The position numbers were made by a program, and so were the translations under genes. A model generated the notes under the pieces. The model searched no databases, had not been told where the DNA came from, and saw only the letters and a program-made list of their open reading frames with translations. Below are positions 27,244 through 57,743 of a DNA stretch of 64,000 nt, one piece after another. Location of the stretch: NCBI GenBank assembly GCA_044350705.1, contig JBILHA010000002.1, positions 30,542 to 94,541 of the forward strand, read 5' to 3'. Origin of the DNA: Candidatus Kapaibacterium sp. Lineage in GTDB: Bacteria > Patescibacteriota > Patescibacteriia > UBA9934. Each line of letters begins with the position of its first letter. Position 1 is the stretch's first letter.

Positions 27244-27245
27244 AC

Positions 27246-28388
27246 TTATTCGCCCAGGGTACCTTGCTCTGTGTAGGCTCGCAAGAGCGCGGCTTGTTCT
27301 TCCTGGAGGGTCGCTTCTTTGCTTATCTTTTCGTGTGCTGCCTTTCCCCATTTTCGTCGTACGTCTGCATGTTTTGCCATATACTCCATTGCGGACGTCA
27401 AACTTGCAATATTTCCCGGCTCAACATGGAGTCCCGTTTGTTCGTGTGCAACAAGCGCGCGTACGCCGGGGAGCGCACTGACAATCGACGGAATTCCTGA
27501 CGCACCTGCTTCGCGGGTTACTAGACCATAGGCCTCCGCGCCGCTTACCGAAGGCAACACGTGTACATCAGCCGCTTGGTACATTTCGGGCAACTCTTCC
27601 GCGAGGACCCCTCCCCAAAATGTCACTCGCTCTTTCATGCCGAGCTCTTTCGCGAGCTGTTCATAGGTGTCGCGCAAATCGCCATCGCCTACCAGCCAAA
27701 GCTTTGTTGCTCCCGTCTGCTCCATTTTTGCATATGCATGCAGTAAAAGGGGTACACCCTTAAATGCATGCGCCCTATCCATTCCTCCTACAAAGAGAAA
27801 AACGCATGTCTCCTCAGAAGTGCCACGTGCTATTCTTCGCTCGGTGTTTCTCCGAGGCATAAACCGGCGATCATCGACCCCAAAGGGTACTACACGTATT
27901 TTTTCTTGCGGAAGATTGAGGAGCTCTCCGTATTCTTGCGTACTCACGCAAATGACATCAGCGAGGTATTTTACGAGCGGCTCTTCAACCCAACGGTGTA
28001 CAGCAAAAAGCGCTCTTCTTACCCACGCCCTTGGCTCTGCCTGTGCTCTCATGTGCCAAGAAATCACCAAGTGCTTTTTTGCGTATTTCGTCATGAGCGC
28101 CACGGGAAGCGCGGTTCCAAAAAAGGGATAGTGGATATGCACCACTTCCGCGCCGGAAATCTTTTCTCGCAGAGGCTTCCAGGGGAGCACTGCAGCATTT
28201 CCCCAGGCGTACCAGGGATCAAGAAGCGTTACCCACTCTTCTTGCGTAGCCTCCTTTCTTTTGTATCTTGGCGTCATGACCCGCACTTTATGTCCTGCTT
28301 CTCGTATAAGACTCACCTCTTGTGCCGCAACTGAACCCATCCCTCCTTTGTAGGGCGGATAGACGGGGCTCAACACGAGAATATGCAT
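27246..28388 (-). CDS. Glycosyltransferase family 4
   Basis: MHILVLSPVYPPYKGGMGSVAAQ...; GT4 C-terminal block (PSVSGAEAYGLVTREAGASGIPSIVSALPG). Confidence 0.85.
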   Translation of the reverse strand: MHILVLSPVYPPYKGGMGSVAAQEVSLIREAGHKVRVMTPRYKRKEATQEEWVTLLDPWYAWGNAAVLPWKPLREKISGAEVVHIHYPFFGTALPVALMTKYAKKHLVISWHMRAQAEPRAWVRRALFAVHRWVEEPLVKYLADVICVSTQEYGELLNLPQEKIRVVPFGVDDRRFMPRRNTERRIARGTSEETCVFLFVGGMDRAHAFKGVPLLLHAYAKMEQTGATKLWLVGDGDLRDTYEQLAKELGMKERVTFWGGVLAEELPEMYQAADVHVLPSVSGAEAYGLVTREAGASGIPSIVSALPGVRALVAHEQTGLHVEPGNIASLTSAMEYMAKHADVRRKWGKAAHEKISKEATLQEEQAALLRAYTEQGTLGE

Positions 28389-28397: not shown

Positions 28398-28754
28398 TTA
28401 CTCTCCTCTTTCTCCTTCCTTCTTCACGGGAACTTTCGGATGCTGAAGAGCGATCTGTCGAACTAATTCCGTTATTTCTTCTTGCATCTTTTGCGTGCGC
28501 ACAAATAAACGGTATACCGCGTAGAGCAATACGAGTACCGCTGCGTACACAAACAAGTCTGCTCCTCGCTCTACTCCCACCGCTTGAGCTACTCTGTCTG
28601 TTGCGCGTGGAATAATCGCGGCGATAGCAATCACCGTCCAAAGTGCCGAGAACGCCAAAAGCCAGTATCGAGAAACGATCTCTTTTTTATACTGTCCGTA
28701 GGTACGAACAATGATGAGGAGCGCAAAAAGAACAATGCTTATTTGAAATACCAT
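28398..28754 (-). CDS. DUF2304-like small membrane protein (usually partners polyprenol-phosphate GT2)
   Basis: 118 aa, MVFQISIVLFALLIIVRTYGQYKKEIVSRYW..., two TM; size and N-terminus resemble DUF2304 proteins found next to DPM-synthase-like GT2 genes; the next gene is such a GT2. Confidence 0.5.
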   Translation of the reverse strand: MVFQISIVLFALLIIVRTYGQYKKEIVSRYWLLAFSALWTVIAIAAIIPRATDRVAQAVGVERGADLFVYAAVLVLLYAVYRLFVRTQKMQEEITELVRQIALQHPKVPVKKEGERGE

Positions 28755-30489: not shown

Positions 30490-32541
30490 CTACCATGCCC
30501 CCATCCAGGTGCCTTGCGCAGGAACGATGTCTTTTATCTCTCCCATGAGCGTTCCATCCGGCGCCCACACCTGCACACTCCCCGCATGCCCATGCGGCGC
30601 AGTCACGATATCCCAATATCCATCTACATCAATATCTGCAACGGACACATTTGTTCCTCCCCCATCCGTTACGTCCGTAATGAAGAACTCTCTCCAGAGC
30701 GCACCAATGTAGTTAAAAATGCGCACATGGCCCGCGCCTCCCGTGAGGGGACCAATCACGATTTCATCACGCTCATCGCCATCGAAGTCTCCTGCGCTCA
30801 AGGTGAGTCCTGCATCCATATTCGGCGCATATGCCAAGAAGTCTACAAGACGAGATCCGTCCGCATTGTAAACAGCTACCCGCGGCTCTTTATTTTGCGC
30901 AGCAATAATGAGCTCTTTTTCCCAGTCATGATCAACATCTGCAACGGCAACCGTGAAACGCGTCCCTTCCGCAAATCCCTCCACCGTGAAACGCGAGAGT
31001 TCTTCCCCGTATTGATCAAAAATAACCACGTCATTACTTACCCCTGCCCCGACCGCAGTCACAATTTCTTCAATCCCGTCTCCCGTTACATCTCCAATCG
31101 CTGCCGAAACGCCTTGGCGAGCGTTCTCATCGTATGCGAAGAATTCTCGCATGAGCGCACCGGAAACGGAAAATATACGCACTTGCGGCCCCCCGCCCAC
31201 TCCGGGCGTTGCCACAATTTCTACCGCATTGTCGTCGTTGAGATCATCTACCGCAACCTGTACCCCGCCGGTGAATGCTTCACCAAATGCAAGGAACGAT
31301 GCATATGCAACCCCATCTGCGCGCCACACCTGTACTTCCGACTTTCCCCCTGCTCGTGCACCGAGCACCATGTATGAATCGCGGGCGCCTGCAAAATCAT
31401 TTACTTCATCATCAATACGTTCCTCGTCTTCTTCACGCTCTTCATCTCCTTCCTCCTGCATACCCACGAGCGTGGCCGCCACTTCTAAAGCGCGTGCGAT
31501 GTTAATACGCCCTGCTCCGATCGCCCCCACTCCTGACAGCGTATGCGCAGGATCAACGCTCAACTTCAGCGCAGAACGCACATTGTCTACCGATATTTCA
31601 GGGTAATAACTCACAATAAGCGCCGCTGCCCCTGCAACGATAGGGCTTGCCATGGACGTTCCAGACCACGGCCCGATATATAACTCCCCTGCTTCCGCGC
31701 GGCTTCCCCTCTCTGCATATCCTAGCCCGTAGATTCCCTCTCCAGGAGCGGAGATGTCTGCGCAGCTTGATCCGAAATTGGTAAATCCCGTCTCTTGGTC
31801 GTCCGCATCAGTCGCCGCAACACCAATGACCCAATCGGAAACCGATCCTTGCAAACAGGCAGGATAGACCGGTACTTCATTGAGATCACGTGCGTCATTT
31901 CCCAGCGCGGCAACAATCACTACCCCTTGTTGATAGGCATGTTGCACCGCGTTTCTAAGTGAGGCATGCGCTTCATTTCCGGCAAAGCTCAAATTAATAA
32001 CATCTGCGCCATTCCGCACCGCATACGCAATCGCCGCGGATGCATCAGATTCATTTCCACTTCCATGCTCATCGAGAATACGGAGCGGCATGATTTTTGC
32101 ATTCCACGCAATTCCCGCGTATCCCTCGTGATTATTTCCTACCGCCCCCACAATGCCTGCGACCACTGTTCCGTGCGACTGCGCCTCAGGATCACTCGAG
32201 TGCTCGAGCTCAGGTGCGGGAGTTGCATCATTATCAATGAAGTCCCACCCTTGCGTATCATCAATATATCCATTTCCATCATCGTCCTTTCCATTTCCTG
32301 CAATTTCCCCTGCGTTGCTCCAGAGGTTTCCTGCAAGATCGGGGTGATCCAAGGCAATGCCCGTATCGAGCACTGCTACAACGACCTCTTCGCTGCCGGT
32401 CGTGATCTCCCATGCCTCTGGTGCTGAAATGTGTGGAAGATACCAGAGATCCGCATACTTGGTGTCATTGGGCGTACGAGCGAGCGCCAGAGCAGGCGTT
32501 ACCATTCCCAGGAGGGCGATCAGTGCAAGGGGCTTATGCAT
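30490..32541 (-). CDS. Secreted subtilisin-like serine protease (S8) with C-terminal FG-GAP/VCBS-type repeats
   Basis: Signal peptide MHKPLALIALLGMVTPALALA; catalytic D (VAVLDTGI), H (HGTVVAGIV), S (GTSMASPIVAGAAAL); an acidic linker; C-terminal repeats with GD.DGDG..E (FG-GAP-like). Confidence 0.85.
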   Translation of the reverse strand: MHKPLALIALLGMVTPALALARTPNDTKYADLWYLPHISAPEAWEITTGSEEVVVAVLDTGIALDHPDLAGNLWSNAGEIAGNGKDDDGNGYIDDTQGWDFIDNDATPAPELEHSSDPEAQSHGTVVAGIVGAVGNNHEGYAGIAWNAKIMPLRILDEHGSGNESDASAAIAYAVRNGADVINLSFAGNEAHASLRNAVQHAYQQGVVIVAALGNDARDLNEVPVYPACLQGSVSDWVIGVAATDADDQETGFTNFGSSCADISAPGEGIYGLGYAERGSRAEAGELYIGPWSGTSMASPIVAGAAALIVSYYPEISVDNVRSALKLSVDPAHTLSGVGAIGAGRINIARALEVAATLVGMQEEGDEEREEDEERIDDEVNDFAGARDSYMVLGARAGGKSEVQVWRADGVAYASFLAFGEAFTGGVQVAVDDLNDDNAVEIVATPGVGGGPQVRIFSVSGALMREFFAYDENARQGVSAAIGDVTGDGIEEIVTAVGAGVSNDVVIFDQYGEELSRFTVEGFAEGTRFTVAVADVDHDWEKELIIAAQNKEPRVAVYNADGSRLVDFLAYAPNMDAGLTLSAGDFDGDERDEIVIGPLTGGAGHVRIFNYIGALWREFFITDVTDGGGTNVSVADIDVDGYWDIVTAPHGHAGSVQVWAPDGTLMGEIKDIVPAQGTWMGAW

Positions 32542-32568
32542 ATGGGCGTATTATGCCACATAACATAA

Positions 32569-32636
32569 AACATCCCGTCATTGCGTAGATACGGCTTCGT
32601 GGGCCGTATCTACGCATAGGAGCACAACGGGATGTT
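32569..32636 (-). terminator. Nested two-tier hairpin terminator after the TPR gene
   Basis: Outer inverted repeat aacatcccgt/acgggatgtt encloses a perfect 14-bp stem tgcgtagatacggc / gccgtatctacgca; followed on the minus strand by a T-rich tract. Confidence 0.6.
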
Positions 32637-32637
32637 C

Positions 32638-33396
32638 TTATTCGGTAGGATTTTTCAGTTCTCGTCCTTCAGCATTATCTCGTGCGCCAGATGCTGTCCG
32701 ACACGCGCTCAGCACTTCTCTTTTTTCATCTTCCACTTGCTGACGAATTTCACCGGTCTCCGCAATCGTTTCTGCAACCTCGAAATGATCTTTTGCCTTT
32801 GTGCAGTCTCCCGCTTCCCCGTACCAACGCCCTAAGCCAAGCATGTTAAACATTTTTCGCCCAACGGTCTCAACCGAATCTTCATAGAGCTCCTTGATCT
32901 TTTCTTTTTCTTCAGGGAACTGCTCCTTCAGAATATTTATTGCATCACGGTAGGTTTGTTCCATTGGCGTCAGTTCTACGGCGCGCAGATATGCATTTTT
33001 TGCGTCCTCCCAATCTTGCATAAGACGGAGCGTATATCCGTACGAGCTCCAGAATCCGCTATTGAGCGAATTTTCTTCGATCGCTTTTTCCAACGATTCT
33101 CGCGCAAGAATGAGATCACCAAGCAACAGTGCATCATTTGCAATCGATGCGTAGAGATTTTCATCCACATCTTCCCCTGCATCTTCCGTTGCTTGTATGG
33201 ATGCTTGTGCCGTTGCAATACGCTGCTCTGCGAGCGCGCGCACGCCTTCATCGGATTGCACCTCAATGCGAGTTACCAATCCCTTATAGGGATCTCGGTT
33301 TACCCAGGCATATGCCCCCAACGCAAGCGCTCCAATCAGCGCGATTGCGACCACTCCCCCGATCCATTGCTCACGAGAAATATTCCTGAAATTCAT
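32638..33396 (-). CDS. TPR-repeat protein with N-terminal signal anchor
   Basis: Start ATG 33396 (MNFRNISREQWIGGVVAIALIGALALGAYAWV); body shows TPR-like helical repeats (WEDAKNAYLRAVEL, YGEAGDCTKAKDHFEVAE). The track ORF extends further upstream without support. Confidence 0.55.
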   Translation of the reverse strand: MNFRNISREQWIGGVVAIALIGALALGAYAWVNRDPYKGLVTRIEVQSDEGVRALAEQRIATAQASIQATEDAGEDVDENLYASIANDALLLGDLILARESLEKAIEENSLNSGFWSSYGYTLRLMQDWEDAKNAYLRAVELTPMEQTYRDAINILKEQFPEEKEKIKELYEDSVETVGRKMFNMLGLGRWYGEAGDCTKAKDHFEVAETIAETGEIRQQVEDEKREVLSACRTASGARDNAEGRELKNPTE

Positions 33397-33461
33397 ATAA
33401 AAAAACTGTAGCAGAGAGTGCTTCGGATGAAAAGAGCATGGTTCTTTTTGAGAAAACCAAA

Positions 33462-33486
33462 CCCCCGGCACAAGGCCGGGGGTTTT
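33462..33486 (-). terminator. Rho-independent terminator after the giant surface-protein gene
   Basis: cccccggc acaag gccggggg followed by tttt; sits ~40 nt past the stop at 33522. Confidence 0.6.
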
Positions 33487-33521
33487 GGCGTTCGCATCAT
33501 TCTTCTTACGAAGATCGATGG

Positions 33522-36500
33522 TTAGAACTGTACAGACGAAGCACCACTGAAGTCGGTGATGTCGACGAGGTAAGCACCCCACCAGTCATCAGTCGTTCCA
33601 GTAGCTCCCGCTACGCCGTCATCCTTCCAGAGGAAAGAGGTTGGGAGGCGGAAGATGTCATCGGACGTACCGATGCCGGTGTTCGCCATAACGTTGGTAC
33701 CAAGGTATCCACGAACAACCGTAAGGTCATTGGTGCTAATGTTGGTTACAAGCATGCGTTCATCGGAAGCGGAAACGCCGTCGTCAGCAACGTCGAAGAT
33801 GATGATATCTCCAACGCTGAATGCAGCTCCGGAATCTACGGTGATTACCGTATCGGTTACTGCAATCGAGGTTTCAGCAGAAGCATCAGCAACTGCGTCG
33901 TAGTTCGTTGAAGCAGGATCGCTTACAATTTCGAACAATACGCTGTCGTCGGTAGATGCACCTGCTGCACTCATGTAGAGCGAGTAGGTCTTTGTGGTTC
34001 CTGCAGCAACTACTTCATCGGTTGGGAATGCTACACCAACAAATGCGATATCAGCTGCGGTACCGTCACATGCTACTACTTCGCTGGAAGCTACCTTGTG
34101 CAAGCTCCAGTTTGCAGAAGCCGTATCAAGAGCGGTCGAAAGGTTCGAGCGATCGAAAATATCGAAATCTGCACCAGTCTTTACATAGGTTCCTGGAGAC
34201 GCGGTATCACACGTGTTCCAATCAGCACCTCCTACATCGGAAGCGCTCATGCGGAACATGATGCGATCGATGACTACATCTTCACCTGCGGTTGCGGAAA
34301 CGTTGAAGCGAAGAACTTCAGGGCGTCCACCTGCAACACCCGTAGAAGGAGAAGAGGAAGAGCGAGCTACAGATGGGTAGGTTTCCTTCACGACGAAGGT
34401 AGGTACGCCATCGGTAGATTCAAGATCGTCACCAAGGTCAGCAACGGAAGCACCGTTTACTTCAGAACCCGAGCCAGAGCCCGTAGCCTTGAAGTAGGTG
34501 TTTCCTGCTCCGGAGGTGTAAAGACCCATACGTACCTTTTCGTTTGAGGTAGCAGAACCACCAGAAACGCGGTCAGTCGTAGGAACGTTTACGTATACCT
34601 CAACGTCGGTAGGTTCATCTACTGCTACTGGGATCGAAAGACCCGAGAAGCGAGCGATGTTTCCAGAGAGCGCTGCGGTAGGAGCAGTTCCGGTCATACC
34701 ATCCCATGCAAGAGAAACAACGGAAATGTTGTTTGCGTATGCAGCGGAGTTGGAAGAGCCCGTATCATCTTCAGCTTGTTCTTCAGAGAAGGACAAGGTG
34801 TTGAGGACGAAATCTTCGTTGGTAGCCGTAAAGCGGTAGGTTGCTACATGGCTGTTGGACGTGCCCGTGCGGAGGAAATCCGCATCTGGCATGTCTGCTG
34901 CAGCGGATGCTGCGAGAGAACCACTTGCTGCGATGGTCACAACGCGATCCACCGTTGTTGCGCTGCCGTTTACTGCGTCACCCGTTGCCGTTACATCGTC
35001 ACCATCTTCGTCTTCGGCGATCACATCAGAAGATGCATCAACGATATCGAATGCGAAATGACGGTTGGAGGTTTCGGATGGGTTTGCAAGGTTACACTTT
35101 ACCGTAAGGGTTGCAACTTCGGAAGCGTCGAGCATCCAGTCCATACTATCAAACGTGATCGTCTGACCGTTGGAAGAAGGAGACTCTGGGCCACCTACGA
35201 TTTCAGAACCGTGGTAAAGCGAGCAAGATTCAATGAAGTCATTGACGTCTGCGTTCGTTTCACCTCCGATCGTGAAGGTTGCATCACCATCGTCATCTCC
35301 GTATGCGGAGAGCACGATTTCACTTACCGTGATATCAGATGCGTCACCTGCCGTGAAGGTGAATCCTACAGCAGCATGGCTGTCGGTTCCCTGAACGGTC
35401 GTGGTATCAACTGGCGTAGAAGCCAAGCTGATTGCAAGAGAAGCTGCACGTGCGGTTTGGTTGAAACCTACAACGCCAGATGCTGGAACGATGTCGGTTA
35501 CCGTGTCACCGTTTGCATCCTCAATGTCGAGACCGGAAACGGTTACCTCGGCTAAGAAGATGGTTCCGGAACCAACCAAATCATCTACGTCTGCAACAAC
35601 TGCGAGATTGAGGGTTTCACCCGCTTCAATCGTGAAGTCATCGGTGAACGTAAGCGTTTCGTCAGCGTCATCGGTTCCCGTAAGTTCGAGAGATGCGCCA
35701 ACGGTGCGGCCACTGTCGGTATCTACCACCTTGATATCAGTCAAGGAAGGTACGGATCCCGTCGTGAAAAGACCATCAGTGTCATCATCTCCGCCGTTCT
35801 CTACTGCATCACGAGCGTCGCCATCAGCGTCGTCGTCAGAGTAAAGCTTTACCGCCATCGACTTCACATCTACCGTCTGTGCAGACGTGATGGAGAATTC
35901 GAGAAGCGTCTGGTCCTGTGCGTCGATCTGAATGTCGCCTACTGCAGGGCCGTTGAATGCAAGCGTTACATCGCCGCCTTGAACGACACTGTAGGAACAC
36001 TGCACGGACGACGTACATGCACTGTCATCGTATTCCTCTATGTTTGTTGCCATGCCGAATCCGTAGTCTCCACCGATCGCGAGAATGTCTACCGCGTTTT
36101 CAGCGTACACACGGATAACGTCGGACGACTTTCCACCAATATCAGCGGAAAGGGTGAAGACGTTATTATCACCTTCTTCAATGAAGAAAGGCTCGTCTGC
36201 AAGGCTACATACAACCTGGTCACGAGAGGTGTTTTCACACTCTGCGAGCCAGTCGGAACCATCCCAGAGGTTGAAATCGGAGTGATCTCCTGCATCCTCA
36301 ACTTCGAGGGTGATGAGCTCTACGTCAGCATCTTCAGTACCTGCGGACAATCGGAACTTCGCAATTTCTGCGTCTTGTTCACCGATTGCAGGGTCCTGGA
36401 TGCTTCCTGCAGCCTCAATCGTCAACGTTCCAGAGCTTGCTCCACCTACGGTGAATTCATCGCCTTCGATTGGGAAGCGACCAGAAACGTCACCCGATGC

Positions 36501-37610
36501 GGTTACCATATCTGCAGATTCGAGCTCGAATCCGAAGGTGGAAGCTGCATCTGCGAGGGTAGCAACCGTTGCCTTTACCGTAAGGGTTACGGAATCGCGA
36601 GCACCAAGCTCAACATCAAGAGAGTTGAAAGTTACTTCGCGGGTAGAAGAGTTGATCGAGCGAGCATCGGTCAAGCGAGTATCACCTTCGTAAAGGTACA
36701 CTGCGGAGAGCGTGCTTGCTGCGCCTGCTCCGGTAAGGGAGAGGGTAACGCCGTCAAGAACTGCTTCTTCGGAACCTGCTTCAACGTCGAAAGCGAATAC
36801 TTCAACGCCGTTTGCGCCCTTCGTAACCGTAGAACCAGCTGGCATCGAAGATGCCGCAGAGATTTCAACGTCTCCCATTGCGGAAGAGTCGTCATCGCTG
36901 GTTTCCGTCTGAGCAGCGTCTACAAGGGAGGTCATCTCGGAAGAGATTTCATCACCCATGGTCAAATCGCTGTCATCGATGTTTGCACCGTCCAAAACGA
37001 ACTTCGACATGAAGTTGTTTGCGGACATACCTGCGGAGGTAACCTCGCGCATTTCACCATCCCAAGAAAGGTAGGTGGTTCCTCCCATTTCATAGAGCGC
37101 ACCTTCGTATGCAGCTGCTTCCATGAGAGAAGTTCCCTCAGTGTAATCAGCGAAGAATACGTCTGGTACGTCTACGATACGCTTGTTCCAATCGGAACCA
37201 GCGAGATCTTCTGCGATGTCTGCGGTTTCAATCCAGTGAATCATGCCGTTGCGAGCAACTGCATATACATCAGCGATGGACTGCACCTTGATCCACCAAG
37301 AACCTGGGCGCATTACTACGTTACCACCGAGGGTGATATCGGAGAGTGCACTGTCAGAAATGGTAGATACGTCATTGAAGTTTGAGTACCAAGTGAAGTA
37401 CGTTGCTTCGTTAGGGAAAACGTAGCGCATACCGTCGTAACCGTAGTAGTAGACGGTAGAGAGCGACGTTCCCTTAATGAGATCGCCAGCAGAAGCTGCG
37501 CTCACCGATGCAGGGGAAACGAGAAGGCCTGCACCTACAGAGAAAGCGATGGTCGCTGCAGCTACTGCTGCAGAGAAAGCACGCTTACCTGTTTCAAGAA
37601 CATGTTGCAT
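33522..37610 (-). CDS. Giant acidic secreted protein (1362 aa), putative surface-layer/adhesin-like protein
   Basis: Start ATG 37610 (MQHVLETGKRAFSAAVAAATIAFSVGAGLLVSPASVSAASA, signal peptide); extremely D/E/T/S/G/A/V-rich; repeated beta-sandwich-like modules; ends ..SSVQF; good terminator downstream. Confidence 0.8.
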   Translation of the reverse strand: MQHVLETGKRAFSAAVAAATIAFSVGAGLLVSPASVSAASAGDLIKGTSLSTVYYYGYDGMRYVFPNEATYFTWYSNFNDVSTISDSALSDITLGGNVVMRPGSWWIKVQSIADVYAVARNGMIHWIETADIAEDLAGSDWNKRIVDVPDVFFADYTEGTSLMEAAAYEGALYEMGGTTYLSWDGEMREVTSAGMSANNFMSKFVLDGANIDDSDLTMGDEISSEMTSLVDAAQTETSDDDSSAMGDVEISAASSMPAGSTVTKGANGVEVFAFDVEAGSEEAVLDGVTLSLTGAGAASTLSAVYLYEGDTRLTDARSINSSTREVTFNSLDVELGARDSVTLTVKATVATLADAASTFGFELESADMVTASGDVSGRFPIEGDEFTVGGASSGTLTIEAAGSIQDPAIGEQDAEIAKFRLSAGTEDADVELITLEVEDAGDHSDFNLWDGSDWLAECENTSRDQVVCSLADEPFFIEEGDNNVFTLSADIGGKSSDVIRVYAENAVDILAIGGDYGFGMATNIEEYDDSACTSSVQCSYSVVQGGDVTLAFNGPAVGDIQIDAQDQTLLEFSITSAQTVDVKSMAVKLYSDDDADGDARDAVENGGDDDTDGLFTTGSVPSLTDIKVVDTDSGRTVGASLELTGTDDADETLTFTDDFTIEAGETLNLAVVADVDDLVGSGTIFLAEVTVSGLDIEDANGDTVTDIVPASGVVGFNQTARAASLAISLASTPVDTTTVQGTDSHAAVGFTFTAGDASDITVSEIVLSAYGDDDGDATFTIGGETNADVNDFIESCSLYHGSEIVGGPESPSSNGQTITFDSMDWMLDASEVATLTVKCNLANPSETSNRHFAFDIVDASSDVIAEDEDGDDVTATGDAVNGSATTVDRVVTIAASGSLAASAAADMPDADFLRTGTSNSHVATYRFTATNEDFVLNTLSFSEEQAEDDTGSSNSAAYANNISVVSLAWDGMTGTAPTAALSGNIARFSGLSIPVAVDEPTDVEVYVNVPTTDRVSGGSATSNEKVRMGLYTSGAGNTYFKATGSGSGSEVNGASVADLGDDLESTDGVPTFVVKETYPSVARSSSSPSTGVAGGRPEVLRFNVSATAGEDVVIDRIMFRMSASDVGGADWNTCDTASPGTYVKTGADFDIFDRSNLSTALDTASANWSLHKVASSEVVACDGTAADIAFVGVAFPTDEVVAAGTTKTYSLYMSAAGASTDDSVLFEIVSDPASTNYDAVADASAETSIAVTDTVITVDSGAAFSVGDIIIFDVADDGVSASDERMLVTNISTNDLTVVRGYLGTNVMANTGIGTSDDIFRLPTSFLWKDDGVAGATGTTDDWWGAYLVDITDFSGASSVQF

Positions 37611-37782
37611 AAGCAAAATAAATGTGACTCTTTTTACCCCAAGAGCCGGGGGTGATGTGAAGAAGGACAAATCCGGCCCTGCGGCCTCGACCTTGCTTGG
37701 TTTTGTCAGGGATGCGAACGCCATCCCTTCGGAATCCACCACGCTTGCGCATGATGCCTTCTGAAGGAAGGGCGAGGTCCGC

Positions 37783-38931
37783 CTAGGGCGTCTCCTCTCC
37801 CGTTTCCTGCGTATCGTCGTCTGTTTTTTCTTTCGCTTCGTTTTCCATGAATGCCTGCGTAATGGATTCTTCGATGAACGTCAGCTCTTTCTCCATGCCC
37901 GCGAGCGCAGCATCCATTTCTTTTAAGGTATCAAGTGCGGATCGCACTCCTCCGGCTGCGAATCCATCCATAATGGAAGGGAGTTTCGCATCCATTTCTT
38001 CCATGGCTTTTTTCATATTCGCAAATGTTGATTTTTCAGGGAGTGTAACACCCGCCTGTGCAAGGATCTCTTTTTGCTCCACCGCGATGCCTTCGATGGT
38101 CGTGATGCGGTGCAGCACCAGTGCACGACGGGTTTCTATTTCTCCAAAAAGATTTCGGAATACTTTTCCTACTTCAACGGTCGAACGGTCGCTTGGGGCG
38201 GTTTCGTGCGCAATAATCGTTACATCGGTTGCAACATCTGCAATTGATTGCGTGGTTTGCGTGACCTGTTCTGCCACCTGGCGTGTATTTACTCCCGCTT
38301 CTTCTGTGTGCTGATCTTCGCTTACTCCTTCCTGTCCACTGCTTGCGGTGGTAATTTCTTCCGCATTTCGCGTGAGCAGGGCAACCTGGTCAAGTACTGA
38401 AGCTGCCGTGGAGAGTGCCTGGGTTTGATCTTGCTCTTGGAGCATTTGCAGATCCGTCGTCGCAGAGGCGATTTCTCGCTGGTACGCCGTAACCGTTTCA
38501 GGGATGTACTGTGCTCTGTTTGGCTCTTCTTGCACGGCGCGTTGGAGTGCCGCAACCTCCTCAAGGCGACGACCTGCGAATTCGGTATGCAGAACCGCTC
38601 GACGATCAAGGGAAGCCATGCGGATTTGCGCACGTTCCGCAATGATCTTTACGTTATAAAGCGTATCTCCTGGCAAACTGTACTGGGCTGCAGATGTGGT
38701 CACCCACCCTCCCGCTACAAATACCAAAGATGCCGCAGTCACTGCAACCGGCTTATAGATCAGGGATTGCAAAAATCCCACGGTGTAAGCCGTAGATGAA
38801 GGAGCGGATTCAAATACCGCCTCGGGAATTGCACTGAGCAACCGCGCCCGAGCCTGTGCATGTACCTCAGCATCAACCGCACCTGCCTGAGGCAGGTTTT
38901 TTGCTTTTCGCAATGCGGGAGGCAAAAACAT
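37783..38931 (-). CDS. Putative anti-sigma factor (single-pass membrane protein with coiled-coil extracytoplasmic domain)
   Basis: Start ATG 38931 lies 7 nt after the ECF sigma stop; one TM (YKPVAVTAASLVFVAGGWVTT); C-terminal 300 aa Q/E/A-rich helical; position and topology fit ECF anti-sigma factors. No sequence family recognised. Confidence 0.45.
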   Translation of the reverse strand: MFLPPALRKAKNLPQAGAVDAEVHAQARARLLSAIPEAVFESAPSSTAYTVGFLQSLIYKPVAVTAASLVFVAGGWVTTSAAQYSLPGDTLYNVKIIAERAQIRMASLDRRAVLHTEFAGRRLEEVAALQRAVQEEPNRAQYIPETVTAYQREIASATTDLQMLQEQDQTQALSTAASVLDQVALLTRNAEEITTASSGQEGVSEDQHTEEAGVNTRQVAEQVTQTTQSIADVATDVTIIAHETAPSDRSTVEVGKVFRNLFGEIETRRALVLHRITTIEGIAVEQKEILAQAGVTLPEKSTFANMKKAMEEMDAKLPSIMDGFAAGGVRSALDTLKEMDAALAGMEKELTFIEESITQAFMENEAKEKTDDDTQETGEETP

Positions 38932-38938
38932 CACAGCG

Positions 38939-39472
38939 TTATGAAGGTAATATTTTTTTAAGCGCAGCCTTTGCACGATGCAAGAGGACGCGAATGTTAT
39001 TTGGCGTTTTGGTAAGTGCAGCAGCAATCTCTTCTATTTCCATCTCGCTGAGATAGCGCATGACGAGCACTTCTTTGTACTCCTCTTTCATGCCTTGCAG
39101 CACTTCGATCACCTGAGCACCTTCGATCCGAAGATCGGTCGCTTGTTCGATATCTGTACCCGCTTGGAGCGAAGCTTCGAGCGCTTCCGTCAATGCTTCA
39201 GGCGTCTTTTTGCGGTAAAAGTCCGCAACAAGATTTCTCGCAATGCGAAAGAGCAAGGCGCCTACATCTTCTACCATGCTCGATGTCATATACTCCCATG
39301 CACGCAAGAACGTTTCGTGAAGTAAATCTTCCGCATCCTCTTTACGAGGAAGTTTAAAGAAGAGAAACCTGCGAATACGGTTTGCGTACAGGTCGTAGAG
39401 CTCTCCATATGCTTGCCCGTCACGAGCAGTGAATACTCGCTTCGCAAGATATTTCGTGCGATATCCTGACAT
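38939..39472 (-). CDS. RNA polymerase sigma-70 factor, ECF subfamily
   Basis: Start ATG 39472 (MSGYRTKY...); region 2 (YGELYDLYANRIRRFLF...DAEDLLHETFLRAWE) and region 4 HTH (YKEVLVMRYLSEMEIEEIAAALTKTPNNIRVLLHRAKAALKK). Confidence 0.85.
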   Translation of the reverse strand: MSGYRTKYLAKRVFTARDGQAYGELYDLYANRIRRFLFFKLPRKEDAEDLLHETFLRAWEYMTSSMVEDVGALLFRIARNLVADFYRKKTPEALTEALEASLQAGTDIEQATDLRIEGAQVIEVLQGMKEEYKEVLVMRYLSEMEIEEIAAALTKTPNNIRVLLHRAKAALKKILPS

Positions 39473-39593
39473 GTAAGTAGACGTACGAGGGGGAGAATTA
39501 TTACAGTTCGGATTTTCTCCTCGCAAAAATCCTATACAATGTACCCCATACGAAGCCCCCAGATTACGGAAATTAGCCAAAAAAAGCAAGCAT

Positions 39594-39857
39594 ATGCCTC
39601 CTTTTGCCCCTATTCGCCTCTCTGTTTCCGAGGCTGCAAAGTTTCTCGGCGTCAGCACACGGACCATTCGGCGCGCCATTGCTGCCGAAGCGGTTACCTA
39701 TATAGTCGTAAAAGACCGCTATAAAATTACACTCGATTCCCTCCTGCAATGGGCAGAAGAGACCTCTACCGTACAAAAAAAGCTGAATACGGTAGGTTTT
39801 GGCATGTTTGTGGAAAAATGGCGTATTCCCTCGCGGAAAAAAATAAAAAAAACCTGA
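39594..39857 (+). CDS. Small helix-turn-helix DNA-binding protein (excisionase/MerR-like HTH)
   Basis: 87 aa; LSVSEAAKFLGVSTRTIRRAI is a canonical HTH; divergent from the ECF sigma gene. Confidence 0.55.
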   Translation: MPPFAPIRLSVSEAAKFLGVSTRTIRRAIAAEAVTYIVVKDRYKITLDSLLQWAEETSTVQKKLNTVGFGMFVEKWRIPSRKKIKKT

Positions 39858-39864: not shown

Positions 39865-39915
39865 CGTAGAGACGACCCGGCGGGTCGTCTCTACGACATC
39901 AGGTTTTTTTATTTT
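39865..39915. terminator. Strong hairpin terminator shared by HTH gene (+) and GT4 gene (-)
   Basis: cgtagagacgaccc ggcg gggtcgtctctacg (~14-bp stem) followed by tttttttatttt. Confidence 0.65.
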
Positions 39916-41078
39916 ATGGCAATTTTCATCATTCCCCATGGTGCAGTTTTTTGTTCTGCGTACACTTCGGTGGTTTTTTTTGCGATATCGTCCCAGTGAT
40001 ACTCCGTTTCCACCACTTCTCGGGACAAGCGCCCGAGCGCGGTTGCTTGGAGCGGATCACGTACGAGATCAAGGATCGCGTACGCGAGCGCATTCGTATC
40101 TCCCACCGGTACAGGAATTCCACTTTCTGCAAGGAGCTCCATGTTTTCAGGAATATCAGAACCTACGACTGCTTTTCCATATCCCATTGCTTCAAGAACG
40201 GCGATTGGTAATCCTTCACTTTGTGAAGGGTGCGCAACAAAGGACGCTCCCATAAAGAGTGCTTCAAGCGACTCTCCGGTTTGATATCCGGTCATAACGA
40301 TGGAAGGATTCATTGCGGCATGTGCGCGCAATTGCGCAACATAGTCATCTGTAAAAGCCGAGTCACCGACAATCGCAAGCTTCATGTCCTTCATGAGCAC
40401 CGGATCAAGATCGCGTGCTTTTTCCCATGCAGCCATGAGCGTGTGGGCGCCCTTGTGCGGCACCAACCGAGACACCATGAGCACATAGCGGTACGGCTGA
40501 AGACCAAAAGGGTCAAGGAGAACCGGGTCGAGCGAAGCACGGCGAGGCGTAATGCCGTTTGGAATATAGGTCGCTGTTCCGCGCCATGCGCTTTTTGCAT
40601 AGGTAGAAAGCGTTTTACTTACGGCGATCGTTTCATGCGGGAAAAGCAGTGCTGCTTTTTCTCCAAGCAACAACATCACGCGAGCAAATGCTCCCCACTT
40701 CGCATGCTTTCGATCCACGCAGTGGAACGTTACGACGGTCTTTGCGCGTGGCGCAAAAAGACGAGGGAGAAATGCGAAGAGCGCAGGACCTACTCCGTGA
40801 AAATGATAAATATCCGGACGCTCAAATACGAGCGCGTGCAGGGTGGAAAGCAACGTATGCGTTGCCGCATCCGCATGCTTGGTCACCCATGAAGGAACGC
40901 GAATCAATCGGATTCCGTTATAGCGATCTCCCGCATGCTTTCCTACATACCACGGGCGAACATAGGTCACGACATCGTGGCCCATGCGCACCAAACGTGT
41001 TGCGAGTTCCGCAACGTGCGTTTCGATGCCTCCAAAGCGACTTGGAATGCCTTTTGTACCCAACATGGCAATTTTCAT
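39909..41078 (-). CDS. Glycosyltransferase family 4
   Basis: Start ATG 41078 (MKIAMLGTKGIPSRFGGIETHV); GT4 C-terminal region (HPSQSEGLPIAVLEAMGYGKAVVGSDIPE). Confidence 0.85.
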   Translation of the reverse strand: MKIAMLGTKGIPSRFGGIETHVAELATRLVRMGHDVVTYVRPWYVGKHAGDRYNGIRLIRVPSWVTKHADAATHTLLSTLHALVFERPDIYHFHGVGPALFAFLPRLFAPRAKTVVTFHCVDRKHAKWGAFARVMLLLGEKAALLFPHETIAVSKTLSTYAKSAWRGTATYIPNGITPRRASLDPVLLDPFGLQPYRYVLMVSRLVPHKGAHTLMAAWEKARDLDPVLMKDMKLAIVGDSAFTDDYVAQLRAHAAMNPSIVMTGYQTGESLEALFMGASFVAHPSQSEGLPIAVLEAMGYGKAVVGSDIPENMELLAESGIPVPVGDTNALAYAILDLVRDPLQATALGRLSREVVETEYHWDDIAKKTTEVYAEQKTAPWGMMKIAIK

Positions 41079-41152
41079 AACCAGCCATTGTAGCAAAAAA
41101 ACGGCTTTTGGTCAATGAAAAAAGAAGTGGTTTTTTTGTAAAAAAATGGCTA

Positions 41153-41178
41153 AATTGTGGCTTATTTTAGCCACAATT
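41153..41178 (-). terminator. Hairpin (aattgtggct/agccacaatt) plus T7 tract between two GT4 genes
   Basis: 10-bp inverted repeat with a 6-nt loop; on the minus strand a T7 run follows 6 nt downstream. Confidence 0.45.
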
Positions 41179-41201
41179 ATAGTTATCCACAGCACGATTC
41201 T

Positions 41202-42449
41202 TTACAAAGTATCTTTCTGATGAATTGCCTCTTGATAGACGGCAAAAAGCGCCTTCATGTGCTTGCGCGGGTCTCCCACTTCCCTTCCTCGTGCCCTTGC
41301 CTGCTCCTGCATCTCTTGTATGCGGGCAGGTTTTTTCTCCCCCTCAGGTAAGAGCAGACGAATATCTCTTTCCCAGGCATCAAGCGCATCTGGGTGCTCT
41401 ACAAATCCTGAAACCCCGTGCTCAACAATCTCAGACAGTCCCCCTTGATTACTCACGATTGCCGGCGTCCCCACGGTTAACGCCTCCAATGCCACGAGCC
41501 CAAACGGCTCTGACCATCGGGAAGGTACGATCACCGCTGACACTTCTTCCATGAGGCTCCAGAGCATCTTTGGGCTGAGCATCGATTGCAGCAGGATGTT
41601 CTTTCTTTTCATTGCGACATTTCTTACATATGCCTCCTCGCTTCCATGCCCTGCGCAGATAAACTCCACATCGGGCATACGCGCCGCAAGCTCGAGAAAG
41701 ACATCTATGCCCTTATACGTTTCAAATCGGCTTGCAAACAGCACCGCCTTTCTGCGCGTCACCCTTTTCGTTTTTCTTTCATGATACGCAAACGCTCCGG
41801 ACGGAAGCGGAATAACCTCAATGCGCGAAGCAGCATATCCCCCTTCTTGCAAGGCGCGTTTGACCGTCTCTGAGGCCGTGAGTATATGACTTACGTTTTG
41901 TGTCCACATCCCCATACTCTTCTGCAGGCGCACGATCGCGTCGCTCACTGCCGTTGCCACAAAAGATTGCTTGATGCAGCGCGTCCGCGCTACTTCGATC
42001 CACGAGGCACGAGGAGAGATCGGCTCCCTGCCGTCAAAGAGTCCGTAATTTGCAGAAATGTATCCATAGTCGTGTGCGGTGAGTACCACCGGTACGCCGC
42101 ACCGCTTTGCTGCACTTAATACTGCAGGGGAAAGATGCGTATATACATTATGTGCATGGATAACGTCAGGCTGAAACGCCGCAATCATGGCCATGGTTTT
42201 TTTGTACGCTTCCCTACTCCACAACGCTCGCCCAAGCTGGCGAAACGCATGCACCCCCCTTCCCACCTGTTCTGTTTCGAGCGCACTGATAAAAAAGTGC
42301 TCCCAGGGGGAAGGGAGATTTTTTGGATGATGCATGGCAAGTACGGCCGTTGCATGCCCTTCCGCGTCCGAAAGACGCATGATGTCGTGCATGTAGCGTC
42401 CTACCCCATCTCGTTCGTGGTTGTACTTATGAATATGCAAAATGCGCAT
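41202..42449 (-). CDS. Glycosyltransferase family 4
   Basis: Start MRILHIHKYNHERDGVGRY; GT4 features (PSRWSEPFGLVALEALTVGTPAIVSNQGG). Confidence 0.85.
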   Translation of the reverse strand: MRILHIHKYNHERDGVGRYMHDIMRLSDAEGHATAVLAMHHPKNLPSPWEHFFISALETEQVGRGVHAFRQLGRALWSREAYKKTMAMIAAFQPDVIHAHNVYTHLSPAVLSAAKRCGVPVVLTAHDYGYISANYGLFDGREPISPRASWIEVARTRCIKQSFVATAVSDAIVRLQKSMGMWTQNVSHILTASETVKRALQEGGYAASRIEVIPLPSGAFAYHERKTKRVTRRKAVLFASRFETYKGIDVFLELAARMPDVEFICAGHGSEEAYVRNVAMKRKNILLQSMLSPKMLWSLMEEVSAVIVPSRWSEPFGLVALEALTVGTPAIVSNQGGLSEIVEHGVSGFVEHPDALDAWERDIRLLLPEGEKKPARIQEMQEQARARGREVGDPRKHMKALFAVYQEAIHQKDTL

Positions 42450-42450
42450 A

Positions 42451-43980: not shown

Positions 43981-44101
43981 GAGAGAAGTATAGCAAGACG
44001 CAAAACGCGGCCCCAGGCACGCGCTTCTCACCTTCACCACCGAAGCGGAGAAAGGAGAAACGCGGCCCAGAGCCGCTGATCGAGCAGGGGCGGAATCCCT
44101 G

Positions 44102-45664: not shown

Positions 45665-45895
45665 TTCTTTTGCCTCCTGGGATTGAACCCGTAGCAAGGT
45701 TAGCAAAAAAATGCGAAAAAGTAAAGGAAAAAGGTGCCTGCAGAGCACTTCTTTTCCTCCAAAAAGTTTTTAAAACGAACAACCGCCCCTACAGTCCCGA
45801 AGGACCGCAGAGGCGGAAGATTCACCGGCGCGAGGCGCCGGCTACAGTAGACACGTGACCCCGTCTACTAGGGGGGGTGGCGCTGACGAGGCGCC

Positions 45896-47038: not shown

Positions 47039-47464
47039 GGCGTCTCCGGTACCTAGGGGAAACCCATTTGGGGTCCTAGGATTTTCTTTCTTTCGTTTCA
47101 GTTGTCAGAGGACTACCGGGACCATCCCGGCCGCTTGGGACCTGATTGATGTCTCAGGCCCCGAGGGCCCTGTTTGGGTCCGGCGGTGTTCGCGTCTCTT
47201 GTGGAGGAACAAGAGCCACGAACATCGCAGGAACAAATCTATTACTTGTTTTAAGATTCACTGTGATGCGTACGTAACCAGGAACCGGATTACTGATTTT
47301 CGTAACGGAGTATCGTACCATTTTTTTCCGTTTTTGTCAATGAAAGAAGGTGCGGATATCGAAGAATTTCACGGATGTTCGGATCTTCTTTTTCCCGGAT
47401 AAAGTGGGAGCAATCTTGCGATTCCTCACACTATGTTCTTGGAAACTTTTACAAACGTCTGGTA

Positions 47465-47501
47465 GGGAGAGTGGCGAAGCCCGAAGGCTTGCCACTCTCC
47501 C
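47465..47501 (-). terminator. Long GC-rich hairpin downstream of the beta-barrel-like gene
   Basis: gggagagtggcgaagcc cgaa ggcttgccactctccc: ~17-bp stem with one bulge; weak U-tract, so terminator function is tentative. Confidence 0.4.
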
Positions 47502-47547
47502 CCCACGATCGGAGAAACCCGAGAGTTCCTCCGATTTGTACCCGCTC

Positions 47548-53936: not shown

Positions 53937-53964
53937 AACTTCCTACATCTGTAGGAAGTTTTTT
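53937..53964. terminator. Bidirectional hairpin terminator shared by smpB (+) and tmRNA (-)
   Basis: aaaaaacttcctaca tc tgtaggaagtttttt: 9-11-bp stem with A/T runs on both sides; abuts the tmRNA CCA end. Confidence 0.75.
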
Positions 53965-56265: not shown

Positions 56266-56285
56266 CCCATTTCTTTTTTCCAAAA

Positions 56286-56316
56286 CCCCGTATGTTCTGC
56301 ATACGGGGTTTTGTTT
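56286..56316 (+). terminator. Rho-independent terminator of the infC-rpmI-rplT operon
   Basis: ccccgtatg ttctg catacgggg ttttgtttt: 9-bp stem followed by a T-run. Confidence 0.8.
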
Positions 56317-56436
56317 TGACTTTTTTGCTTTTTTCTGCTAAAATACCGGGTCCGTTTGAGAGCTCGTTGAGTTCTCTTTCGGCCATCAAGTTCGATCCTT
56401 TCACCCACCGCCGGAGATCCCGGCAAAGGAGCCCTC

Positions 56437-57737: not shown

Positions 57738-57743
57738 GAAAAC

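Follow-up and report, generated by a model that had tools for sequence, protein, structure and literature searches.

A conserved ECF sigma factor, DUF5667 protein, and giant surface protein locus with a structured leader RNA in Candidatus Uhrbacteria: a candidate envelope-type operon

The SigW–RsiW and SigX–RsiX pairs of Bacillus subtilis are expressed from autoregulated promoters with an AAC-type −35 and a CGWC −10 element. Gram-positive S-layer proteins, e.g., SbsB and Sap, combine a wall anchor with an array of Ig-like domains. Within operons, cis-acting leader elements such as cggR-gapA processing, STAB-SD stabilizers, and the 5' UTRs of S-layer genes give mRNA segments different stabilities. 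In Streptomyces, the ECF sigma factor Sigma-BldN and its membrane anti-sigma factor RsbN control the surface sheath of chaplins and rodlins; RsbN also exemplifies anti-sigma factors without any detectable similarity (PMC6101532). PlyCB, enterococcal endolysin domains, and the EccB1 repeat domain (PMC4769845) are found on, or bind, Gram-positive-type walls. CPR cells have an S-layer and lack an outer membrane, as seen by cryo-TEM (10.1101/2020.05.14.094862).

The window analyzed here is a stretch of 64,000 nucleotides from an uncultivated ultra-small bacterium, Candidatus Uhrbacteria (Patescibacteria). The ORF check of the window found all five minus-strand ORFs present, and the head-to-tail arrangement and gene identities proposed in an earlier note hold in Pfam and NCBIfam comparisons (Table 1). 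Like that note, which did not recognize a described system, we found no description of the system or of the giant protein family in the literature searched.

Table 1. Features of the locus, in window positions
Feature	Positions	Strand	Basis
Secreted S8 subtilase with FG-GAP C-terminal half, 683 aa	30490..32541	-	Pfam Peptidase_S8 1e-49, FG-GAP_3, FG-GAP
Long hairpin + TTTTAT after TPR gene, terminator-like	32565..32636	-	Read directly from sequence
Membrane-anchored TPR protein, 252 aa	32638..33396	-	Pfam TPR_2, TPR_12
Intrinsic terminator after giant gene	33459..33485	-	11 pairs, 8 G-C, + T-run
Giant secreted acidic protein, 1362 aa	33522..37610	-	ORF, composition, AlphaFold model
N-terminal alpha/beta module, residues about 41-235, putative wall-binding anchor	36906..37490	-	Fold comparison
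Structured leader of giant gene, 172 nt	37611..37782	-	Folding + covariation
Pyrimidine-rich tail (CUUCUUCACAUCA) + P3 hairpin (CCCC..GGGG), ahead of start codon	37637..37665	-	Recurring blocks
Core RNA motif (P1 + bulge + P2)	37666..37707	-	Covariation
P1 3' strand	37674-37666	-	Part of core RNA motif
P2 hairpin GGCC-GCAG-GGCC	37686-37675	-	Part of core RNA motif
Bulge AAGCAAGGUCGA	37698-37687	-	Part of core RNA motif
P1 5' strand	37707-37699	-	Part of core RNA motif
Hairpin P0b, GGGAUGG-CGUUC-GCAUCCC	37709..37727	-	Equivalents in other clades
Helix P0, conserved CCUUC...GAAGG base around variable-sequence hairpin	37726..37767	-	RNAalifold, 21 leaders
DUF5667 single-pass membrane protein, 382 aa	37783..38931	-	Family match of relatives; hydrophobic span
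ECF sigma factor, 177 aa	38939..39472	-	Pfam Sigma70_r2 + r4_2
ECF-type promoter TGTAAT-N16-CGTC, predicted	39480..39505	-	Motif scan upstream of sigma
Sigma-70-like promoter candidate TTGCGA-18-AATAAT, with TG	39497..39526	-	Scan; upstream of ECF promoter
HTH_17 (excisionase/MerR-like) DNA-binding gene, 87 aa	39594..39857	+	Pfam HTH_17 35.7 bits

The order ECF sigma factor, DUF5667 membrane protein, acidic protein of ~1,360 aa is seen in 71/71 related loci, mostly from Candidatus Uhrbacteria (Patescibacteria), and the same layout surrounds DUF5667 proteins of distant loci at only 30% identity; its repetition in 71 independent species-level loci is above chance. Conservation of the five-gene order, named earlier as a check, holds for these three, while the TPR and S8 protease genes are found in only 60–75% of loci (TPR gene ≤1.5 kb past the giant gene in 37/62; S8 protease gene ≤4 kb in 39/53, its FG-GAP half in only 25/53). 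The conserved core consists of the HTH_17, sigma, DUF5667, and giant genes, and the TPR and S8 protease genes lie outside it.

The signal-anchored TPR protein (N-terminal hydrophobic anchor; true ATG at 33396) and the secreted subtilase with an FG-GAP C-terminal half are both as described before. Strong terminators had been noted behind the giant and TPR genes, and hairpins are found at both; a comparable terminator follows the giant-gene stop within ≤150 nt in 37/42 loci, and the TPR-gene hairpin exceeds the loop limit of the automated terminator scan. The subtilase has an intact D59/H123/S296 triad and scores 178 bits against the mycosin model (cut-off 279). The intrinsic terminator separates the giant gene from the TPR and S8 genes, which continue straight into a glycan-synthesis cluster of epimerase and glycosyltransferase genes, the epimerase gene starting 19 nt downstream of the subtilase gene. 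Because of this separation, the patchy presence, and the run-on into glycan genes, the reading of the subtilase as the system's own maturation protease is unsupported; more generally, the protease may have some role in the surface-protein system.

The sigma factor scores 75.1 bits against NCBIfam TIGR02937 (cut-off 42.9). Among named NCBIfam models, that of the BldN family scores best, a point of likeness to Sigma-BldN/RsbN; however, at 95 bits the match is far under the equivalog cut-off of 206, hence, the protein is not a BldN orthologue. Among solved structures, the best relatives are the ECF sigma factor 6dxo_A, which we take to be BldN itself, and then SigW. The second rank of SigW, the presence of sigma-2 and sigma-4 domains only, the AAC-type −35 and CGWC −10 elements, and a membrane-protein gene that overlaps or abuts the sigma gene are shared with SigW–RsiW and SigX–RsiX. 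The motif TGTAAY-N16/17-CGWC is found upstream of sigma in 45/73 regions, and in 35 of these 45 the spacing from the −10 element to the ATG is exactly 7 nt; this is also the spacing in the window. With the start codon so close, the sigma transcript probably has no leader, unlike in the two Bacillus systems, and sigma is probably autoregulated from the predicted promoter. Sigma-70-like matches cluster 69–91 nt before the sigma ATG in 29/73 loci.

The DUF5667 gene starts 7 nt past the sigma stop in the window, in agreement with the earlier description of an anti-sigma-like gene with one transmembrane span; across loci the gap has a median of 1 nt, with a frequent 4-nt overlap. A DUF5667 ORF is present in 71/71 loci. 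The window copy scores 23.4 bits against the family (cut-off 27), and all 23 aligned relatives match it. The protein has ~60 cytoplasmic residues, a hydrophobic span at roughly residues 61–82, and an ectodomain with an invariant SLPGDxLY...HTEFA motif. It is probably the cognate anti-sigma factor. Sequence comparison of DUF5667 proteins revealed no recognizable similarity to a sigma-binding or anti-sigma domain, and the zinc-binding or class I anti-sigma domain of SigW–RsiW and SigX–RsiX was not found here. The shortness of the cytoplasmic part counts against an anti-sigma function; in RsbN the cytoplasmic domain has 117 residues, and DUF5667 is absent. As noted earlier, no strong terminator follows the sigma/DUF5667 pair, and nothing canonical was found there.

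The leader of the giant gene had been called structured; this is upheld by covariation, beyond the folding energy (z = −2.6). Across 20 loci aligned without gaps, 91.8% of cells of the core motif pair, vs 67% when shuffled and ≤44% when slid; P1 shows double changes at all 10 pairs and a duplex energy of −11.5 vs −6.1 kcal/mol (z = −17), and P2 shows 98% pairing and includes GC/AU swaps. The bulge AAAGGUCGA is invariant. The inner pairs of P0 show compensatory changes (RNAalifold, 21 leaders), P0b equivalents of the form GGRA..UYCC are present in further clades, and blocks such as CUCUAUUCUUYACCCC..GGGG are conserved among related leaders. With the covariance model, the core motif is found in a single copy per locus and only ever upstream of the giant gene; comparison with Rfam families gave no sequence or structural match.

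The earlier note had looked to this leader for an ECF-type promoter. Such a promoter exists, although upstream of sigma: no ECF-promoter hit of ≥14 bits lies in the 600 nt ahead of the giant gene in any of 80 loci. Sigma-70-like matches are seen in the giant leaders of only 5/56 loci, at scattered positions, in a phylum whose promoters are uncharacterized, and terminator-like sites are seen in only 5/71 leaders. Given a leader with neither a recognizable promoter nor a terminator, dependence of the giant gene on sigma would run via co-transcription rather than via a promoter of its own. This differs from BldN, which acts on many dispersed promoters, in that the surface-protein gene lies in cis and has no ECF promoter; and from SigW–RsiW and SigX–RsiX in that the operon would extend into a 4-kb structural gene. 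The arrangement resembles that of cggR-gapA, STAB-SD, and S-layer 5' UTRs in having a regulator gene upstream, a presumably abundant product downstream, and a structured leader with an exposed purine-rich AAAGG element, while this leader lacks likeness to Rfam families.

The giant protein is acidic, secreted, and built of beta-sandwich modules, as composition, the signal peptide, and the AlphaFold model confirm: its pI is 4.05, with D+E 16.4% and K+R 3.9%; it is rich in A/S/D/T/V/G and ends in ..SSVQF. A signal peptide spans residues 1 to about 40; the protein also has conserved cysteine pairs and a conserved C-terminal domain of 127 residues (1236–1362); modeled without this domain, it forms a chain of beta-sandwich modules (mean pLDDT 90) that are cohesin/Ig-like in structural comparison. 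The N-terminal module shows weak fold likeness to the wall-binding domains of PlyCB and endolysins, sharing a small alpha/beta fold with PlyCB, enterococcal endolysin domains, and the EccB1 repeat domain (PMC4769845); it is mobile, terminal, and occurs in >4,000 protein clusters. More than 350 relatives of the giant protein have a constant length (1330–1490 aa) and 42–74% identity. Family and structure searches matched no known family of unrelated function, in line with the earlier view. The protein resembles SbsB and Sap in being secreted, acidic, and cysteine-poor, with a terminal putative wall-binding module followed by a rigid beta-sandwich string, and in having an mRNA that starts with a long, structured 5' leader and has a strong terminator; unlike them, it has no match to SLH, CWB2, or another known S-layer anchor or family, and no solved S-layer protein is among its top structural matches.

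On balance, we lean toward a sigma–DUF5667–giant operon of the envelope type, conserved in Uhrbacteria-type Patescibacteria and encoding an S-layer-type surface protein, where both the anti-sigma function of the DUF5667 protein and the S-layer identity of the giant protein are what we infer. Here, the DUF5667 protein would hold sigma at the membrane and set it free when its conserved ectodomain senses an envelope signal; freed sigma would transcribe its own operon from the leaderless start, and transcription would continue into the giant gene. The leader RNA (P1/P2, the invariant bulge, and flanking hairpins), most likely a processing or stabilizing element or a protein-binding site, would uncouple giant-gene output from that of the regulators. 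After Sec export, the PlyCB-like N-terminal module would hold the giant protein on the organism's own wall, and the beta-sandwich chain would form the outer, S-layer-type surface layer. The TPR protein, S8/FG-GAP protease, and flanking glycosyltransferases would add accessory envelope functions in a subclade, not as demonstrated parts of the switch. As in Sigma-BldN/RsbN, sigma would be linked to proteins coating the cell surface, here a putative coat. Across the lineage, the largest secreted, probably wall-anchored surface protein is encoded next to a sigma factor of the stress type, a membrane partner, and a folded RNA leader.

The same protein might instead be a host-attachment adhesin, its PlyCB-like module binding the wall of a host bacterium and the ECF pair switching it on at a host or envelope cue. 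An episymbiotic life style is known for CPR bacteria (10.1101/2020.05.14.094862), the N-terminal module is closest in fold to lysin domains, which attach to the wall of a target cell, the beta-sandwich chain is also similar to adhesin stalks and cohesins, and stress-type sigma control fits a conditional protein better than a constitutive coat. We nevertheless regard this as rather doubtful: length is constant and repeat number does not vary; divergence among the 80 fetched loci, every one from a different assembly, is ordinary and similar to that of neighboring enzymes; neither an LPXTG or other covalent anchor nor a distinct tip domain was found in the giant protein; and the N-terminal module is carried by thousands of different secreted proteins, as expected of a self-anchoring module.

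Two further alternatives concern the leader. Adjacency may carry no regulatory link, sigma and DUF5667 regulating elsewhere and the giant gene having an unrecognized promoter, possibly overlapping the AAAGGTCGAG block and a TAnnnT-like element. An abundant S-layer protein would normally be expressed from its own strong promoter, which counts against the operon, and promoter rules in CPR are uncharacterized; a TAnnnT-like element lies 10–12 nt past P1 in many clades, TAGAAT, TATTCT, or TACTCT lies shortly past P1 in many leaders outside the window's clade, and regulon members were sought within ~10 kb either side of each locus. However, the TAnnnT element lies ~24 nt past the conserved block, with no −35-like element at a workable distance, and the hexamer is absent from the window's own clade. 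The segments flanking the block covary as RNA helices and are therefore transcribed; the leader is taken up by hairpins beginning a few nt past the DUF5667 stop, no terminator separates the DUF5667 and giant genes, and adjacency holds in 71/71 loci, down to 30% protein identity, so that we consider independent expression unlikely. Still less probable in our estimate is a leader acting mainly as a leaky attenuator or terminator, with the P1/P2 stem and its U- or pyrimidine-rich tail limiting read-through, and not as a stabilizer or binding site. U-rich tracts (e.g., UCUAUUCUUU, UUGUUUCUU, CUUCUUC) follow P1 in most loci, and the five terminator-like loci have their sites exactly at the P1 tail or P0b; yet the tails are rarely true U-runs, 66/71 leaders fail the terminator criteria, and a plain terminator needs neither a 9-nt bulge invariant down to 30% protein identity nor a loop reading GCAN in most loci.

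The HTH_17 gene, a core member overlooked by the earlier note, is divergent to sigma; a homologue lies ≤600 nt upstream of sigma in 69/71 loci, and the gene is also seen at distant loci. Its product weakly matches Gp37, a phage Xis protein (PDB 4j2n).

All five co-oriented minus-strand genes described in the earlier note are present as open reading frames, with minor corrections (see the table); the finding is real and is conserved across the lineage. For comparison, one genome per species was scanned, yielding 149 homologous loci, of which 80 (L001–L080) were fetched; gene presence was counted on the fetched loci by gene-by-gene tblastn, and denominators refer to assessable loci. The sigma factor gene is upstream of the gene for the giant secreted acidic protein (hereafter, the giant gene) in 71/71 loci, and the gene for a DUF5667 protein lies between the two in 64/71 by tblastn. 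Since the other seven loci have, at the same position, an ORF with the same topology and the LPGDxLY signature, the DUF5667 gene is counted in 71/71. A small HTH_17 gene, overlooked in the earlier note, is divergent from sigma in 69/71 loci, and the order HTH_17, sigma, DUF5667, large protein is also seen around DUF5667 proteins of only 30% identity. The TPR gene is found at most 1.5 kb downstream of the giant gene in 37/62 loci, and an S8 protease at most 4 kb downstream in 39/53 (with the FG-GAP half in 25/53). Hence, the proposed five-gene order holds in relatives for sigma, DUF5667, and the giant gene, and in only part of them for the TPR and S8 genes; from these synteny counts, the conserved core consists of HTH_17, sigma, DUF5667, and the giant gene.

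Features of the locus and of the surrounding DNA (window positions; for the distal promoter, positions in the related loci named)
Feature	Position	Strand	Description
S8 subtilase gene	30490-32541	-	683 aa; FG-GAP repeats in C-terminal half
TPR protein gene	32638-33396	-	252 aa; membrane-anchored
Strong terminator	33485-33459	-	after giant gene
Giant gene	33522-37610	-	1362 aa
DUF5667 protein gene	37783-38931	-	382 aa; start 7 nt past sigma stop
ECF sigma factor gene	38939-39472	-	177 aa; Pfam Sigma70_r2 and r4_2
Predicted ECF-type promoter of sigma	39505-39480	-	TGTAAY-N16-CGWC pattern
HTH_17 gene	39594-39857	+	small; divergent from sigma
tmRNA gene	53964-54378	-	
tRNA gene	57661-57734	+	
Distal ECF-type promoter	L013 7840; L022 1808; L033 2789; L044 7928; L054 8000; L071 7846		

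The assignment of the sigma factor to the ECF group is borne out by Pfam and NCBIfam matches above cut-off (TIGR02937, 75.1 bits, cut-off 42.9), by its domains, which are sigma-2 and sigma-4 only, and by its PDB relatives, all those found being ECF sigmas. The nearest named model is the BldN family, although membership was rejected, the score of 95.3 bits being well under the cut-off of 206.45 for the equivalog TIGR02952. In right-aligned sigma upstream regions, the pattern TGTAAY-N16/17-CGWC is present in 45/73, and in 35 of those 45 loci the distance from the end of the −10 element to the ATG is exactly 7 nt. With its AAC-type −35 and CGT-type −10, which are the marks of autoregulatory promoters of ECF sigmas, this element is predicted to be a classical ECF-type promoter, implying autoregulation, and the sigma mRNA is probably leaderless. 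Matches to sigma-70-like promoters cluster 69–91 nt upstream of the sigma ATG in 29/73 loci.

Two further observations concern this upstream region. The palindrome GTCTACNCTAGNGTAGAC is seen in the shared HTH_17/sigma promoter region of 32 loci, and resembles an operator; the 150 nt preceding sigma showed no such palindrome in the window or in its three closest relatives (L001, L003, and L029). A further ECF-type promoter, distal to the first, exists in one clade, about 190–230 nt before the sigma ATG. A conserved GCGAACCTTAGC segment comes after it and could base-pair with GCTAAGGTTCG, which immediately precedes the proximal promoter; in some loci the DNA downstream of the distal promoter is without an ORF, and in others the ORFs there are short and dissimilar. 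Tandem ECF promoters and a structured 5′ region are thus suggested for that clade.

The gene next to sigma, noted earlier for its single transmembrane segment, encodes a DUF5667 protein with one hydrophobic span (approximately residues 61–82). The window copy scores 23.4 bits with DUF5667, under the cut-off of 27; the family is matched by 23/23 aligned relatives, is the sole Pfam family matched by more than two of these 23, and, for the 120 relatives listed in a profile search of 5.8 billion proteins, no other precomputed Pfam domain is recorded. The gap between the sigma and DUF5667 genes has a median of 1 nt, with a frequent 4-nt overlap, and in 71/71 loci the gene adjacent to and co-oriented with sigma encodes a single-pass membrane protein. 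Topology, position, and gene coupling are those typical of an anti-sigma factor. No known anti-sigma domain (class I/ZAS, class II, or RsbN-like) was found by Pfam search of the 23 relatives, by PDB profile search, which gave a chance match only, or among the 120 listed relatives, and the HxxxCxxC motif is absent from the DUF5667 protein. Anti-sigma factors can be without detectable similarity, as shown by RsbN, the partner of sigma-BldN (PMC6101532). On these grounds, an anti-sigma role of the DUF5667 protein is plausible but unproven. A literature search returned no paper mentioning DUF5667, and none linking ECF sigmas with Parcubacteria.

The structured leader proposed upstream of the giant gene corresponds to a 172-nt gap (37611–37782, minus strand) with covarying helices. 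The block AAAGGUCGA is invariant in every leader and precedes a 4-bp hairpin (GRCC, a loop that is mostly GCAN, GGYC), whose second pair alternates between G-C and A-U; both are enclosed by P1, a helix of variable sequence. The mean duplex energy of P1 is −11.5 kcal/mol for flanks of the same locus versus −6.1 for flanks taken across loci (z = −17), and 0/10,000 permutations were as good. When 20 loci with a common register, a subset whose selection by register favours structure somewhat, are aligned by MAFFT without gaps, 91.8% of cells pair, versus 67% when shuffled; at most 44% pair if one partner is slid by 1–3 columns, and changes on both sides are seen in 10/10 P1 pairs. P1 went undetected by RNAalifold on plain MAFFT alignments, as the linker differs in length between loci, and only 55% of P1 cells were paired in the first covariance-model alignment; P1 was settled by the self-versus-cross duplex test together with the gapless same-register alignment. 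In the window's clade there is also support for helices P0 and P0b upstream and P3 downstream.

With the covariance model, each locus yields exactly one copy across 1.5 Mb, in every case upstream of the giant gene, and no further copy turns up elsewhere in the 64-kb window. In metagenomes, each of the 23 strongest matches listed (at least 38 bits, all full-length) precedes a giant homologue. A metagenome scan with a 20-nt core gave 108 matches, with a giant homologue downstream in 26 of the 97 assessable; the remainder give no evidence for other contexts of the motif, those inspected being local matches to the 20-mer only, in unrelated DNA of higher GC, coding DNA included. Rfam at gathering thresholds gave no match in the whole window, and a permissive search of 37500–37900 gave chance matches only (E at least 3.5). 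The leader is, judging by its covariation and context, a well-supported RNA motif absent from Rfam. The public gene call of the giant protein (1400 aa, GTG start) runs 38 codons into it (37611–37724, minus strand); homologues and the RNA structure place the predicted true start at the ATG at 37610, which corrects a recurrent annotation error.

The earlier note had proposed to look for an ECF motif in the leader. With a weight matrix built from 40 sigma-upstream promoters (cut-off 14 bits), no site of at least 14 bits was found in the 600 nt preceding the giant gene in any of 80 loci, so that an ECF promoter there was rejected; the sole site in the window is the promoter preceding sigma itself. 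A sigma-70-type promoter in the leader or the final 400 nt of the DUF5667 gene was rejected as a conserved feature as well (5/56 loci, at scattered positions), and the leader hairpins start a few nucleotides after the DUF5667 stop codon, leaving little room for a promoter. Terminator-like sites are seen in 5/71 leaders, as opposed to 37/42 loci within 150 nt after the giant stop codon; of the two terminators reported earlier, that after the giant gene is indeed there, and the TPR gene is followed by a terminator-like long hairpin plus TTTTAT. The simplest reading is that sigma, DUF5667, and the giant gene would form one operon, ended by the terminator after the giant gene. The leader within it would, in our preferred view, be a protein-binding site or serve in processing or stabilisation, and so uncouple the output of the giant protein from that of the regulators; the main alternative is a leaky attenuator.

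The giant protein is as acidic as claimed (pI 4.05; D+E 16.4% versus K+R 3.9%) and is rich in A/S/D/T/V/G. It has more than 350 full-length relatives of 1330–1490 aa with 42–74% identity, named, where a name is given, Patescibacteria or Candidatus Uhrbacteria. Pfam, NCBIfam, and PDB profile searches with the window protein gave nothing; members of its family show sporadic fn3_5 and FixG_C matches only, and no homology to S-layer families or anchors (SLH, CWB2, others) was found. Whole-model structure searches gave only generic tandem beta-sandwich matches or single cohesin-like domains, the comparison list including Ig-like domains of PrgB and macroglobulin and integrin legs. The N-terminal module (residues ~41–235, with a weak resemblance to the PlyCB/endolysin fold) is found by phmmer in 4093 cluster representatives, at the N- or C-terminus of proteins of 216–3512 aa, with DUF3048, Big_1, PEGA, fn3/CARDB, or Big_7 as partners; given this terminal placement with varied partners, it behaves as an anchoring module would. 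The eight cysteines form four nearby pairs (458/468, 532/538, 796/839, and 1134/1181), suggestive of extracellular disulfides; among the last four, three are invariant and the fourth nearly so in 30 relatives.

Constant length, ordinary divergence, one locus per assembly, a signal peptide, acidity, and the cysteine pairs point to a structural surface protein. A host-binding adhesin is a serious alternative, as the stalk-like chain of beta-sandwiches is common to fibrillar adhesins; however, the relatives, at 1330–1490 aa, align end to end, and the protein has neither an LPXTG motif nor a C-terminal membrane span. The variable repeats, covalent or membrane anchor, and distinct adhesive tip that mark fibrillar adhesins were not found in it. 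By cryo-TEM, CPR cells lack an outer membrane but have an S-layer (10.1101/2020.05.14.094862); predicted S-layer proteins have also been described for the phylum (10.1101/2024.05.28.596244). A literature search gave no paper linking an S-layer protein with Uhrbacteria.

In the window, the S8 subtilase matches PF00082 (1.3e-49) and has an intact catalytic triad in the order D59 (DTG), H123 (HGT), and S296 (GTSMA), and its FG-GAP half is as described; its identification as a type VII secretion mycosin was rejected (TIGR03921, 177.9 bits, below the cut-off of 278.75). The suggestion that it serves as the module's own maturation protease finds no support: the protease and TPR genes are accessory ones that lead on into a cluster for glycan synthesis, the window's epimerase and GT2 genes, 3′ of the protease, being conserved together with it. 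Glycan genes flank the module on both sides (28398–28754 to 26011–27351, and 39909–44265), comprising GT2, DUF2304, four GT4, an NAD-dependent epimerase/dehydratase-family gene, and a Wzy_C/O-antigen-ligase-like membrane protein; they are candidates for making the wall polymer of the N-terminal module, or for glycosylating the Ser/Thr-rich giant protein. Some of the loci L006, L047, L065, L025, L034, and L039 have 3–7 kb of extra DNA between the giant and TPR/S8 genes, and more than 5 kb is covered by the giant-protein match in L008, L034, and L039, where a second gene of the giant type or an insertion may be present.

Much of bacterial diversity belongs to the Patescibacteria (CPR), nearly all of them uncultivated and living in attachment to other cells; to our knowledge, the molecular basis of their envelope, which cryo-TEM shows as a wall with an S-layer, is largely uncharacterised. 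The locus is an ECF sigma/anti-sigma envelope module, its anti-sigma member being a candidate, and modules of this type are already known. New are the putative linkage, in one operon, with a giant surface protein whose family is uncharacterised, so that one lineage has a concrete candidate for its main surface protein; DUF5667 as a candidate family of anti-sigma factors, a functional hypothesis for a family of unknown function; a widespread candidate wall-anchoring module, common to more than 4,000 protein clusters; and a well-supported RNA motif with a defined genetic context. Taken jointly, and rather improbably in all its parts, the ~1360-aa protein would be the S-layer protein long sought in a major CPR lineage, with its output set by DUF5667 (a new class of membrane anti-sigma factors sensing the integrity of the wall or surface layer), by a leaderless autoregulated ECF sigma, and by a cis-regulatory RNA of a new kind (P1/P2 and the invariant AAAGGUCGA bulge), acting as a processing site or as a switch that responds to a ligand or protein; thousands of Patescibacteria surface proteins would have the PlyCB-like module as their general wall anchor, comparable to SLH domains.

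Many assemblies carrying the locus among L001–L080 are titled "uncultured Gammaproteobacteria bacterium" despite its Patescibacteria type, which looks like a placeholder or a mislabel. Elsewhere in the window, islands of 60–65% G+C at 44001–48000, 56001–58000, and 62001–64000, against a background of about 50%, may hold foreign or compositionally odd genes; that at 44001–48000 has several ORFs without a Pfam match and a protein with six MopE-type putative metal-binding repeats (44102–45748, minus strand).
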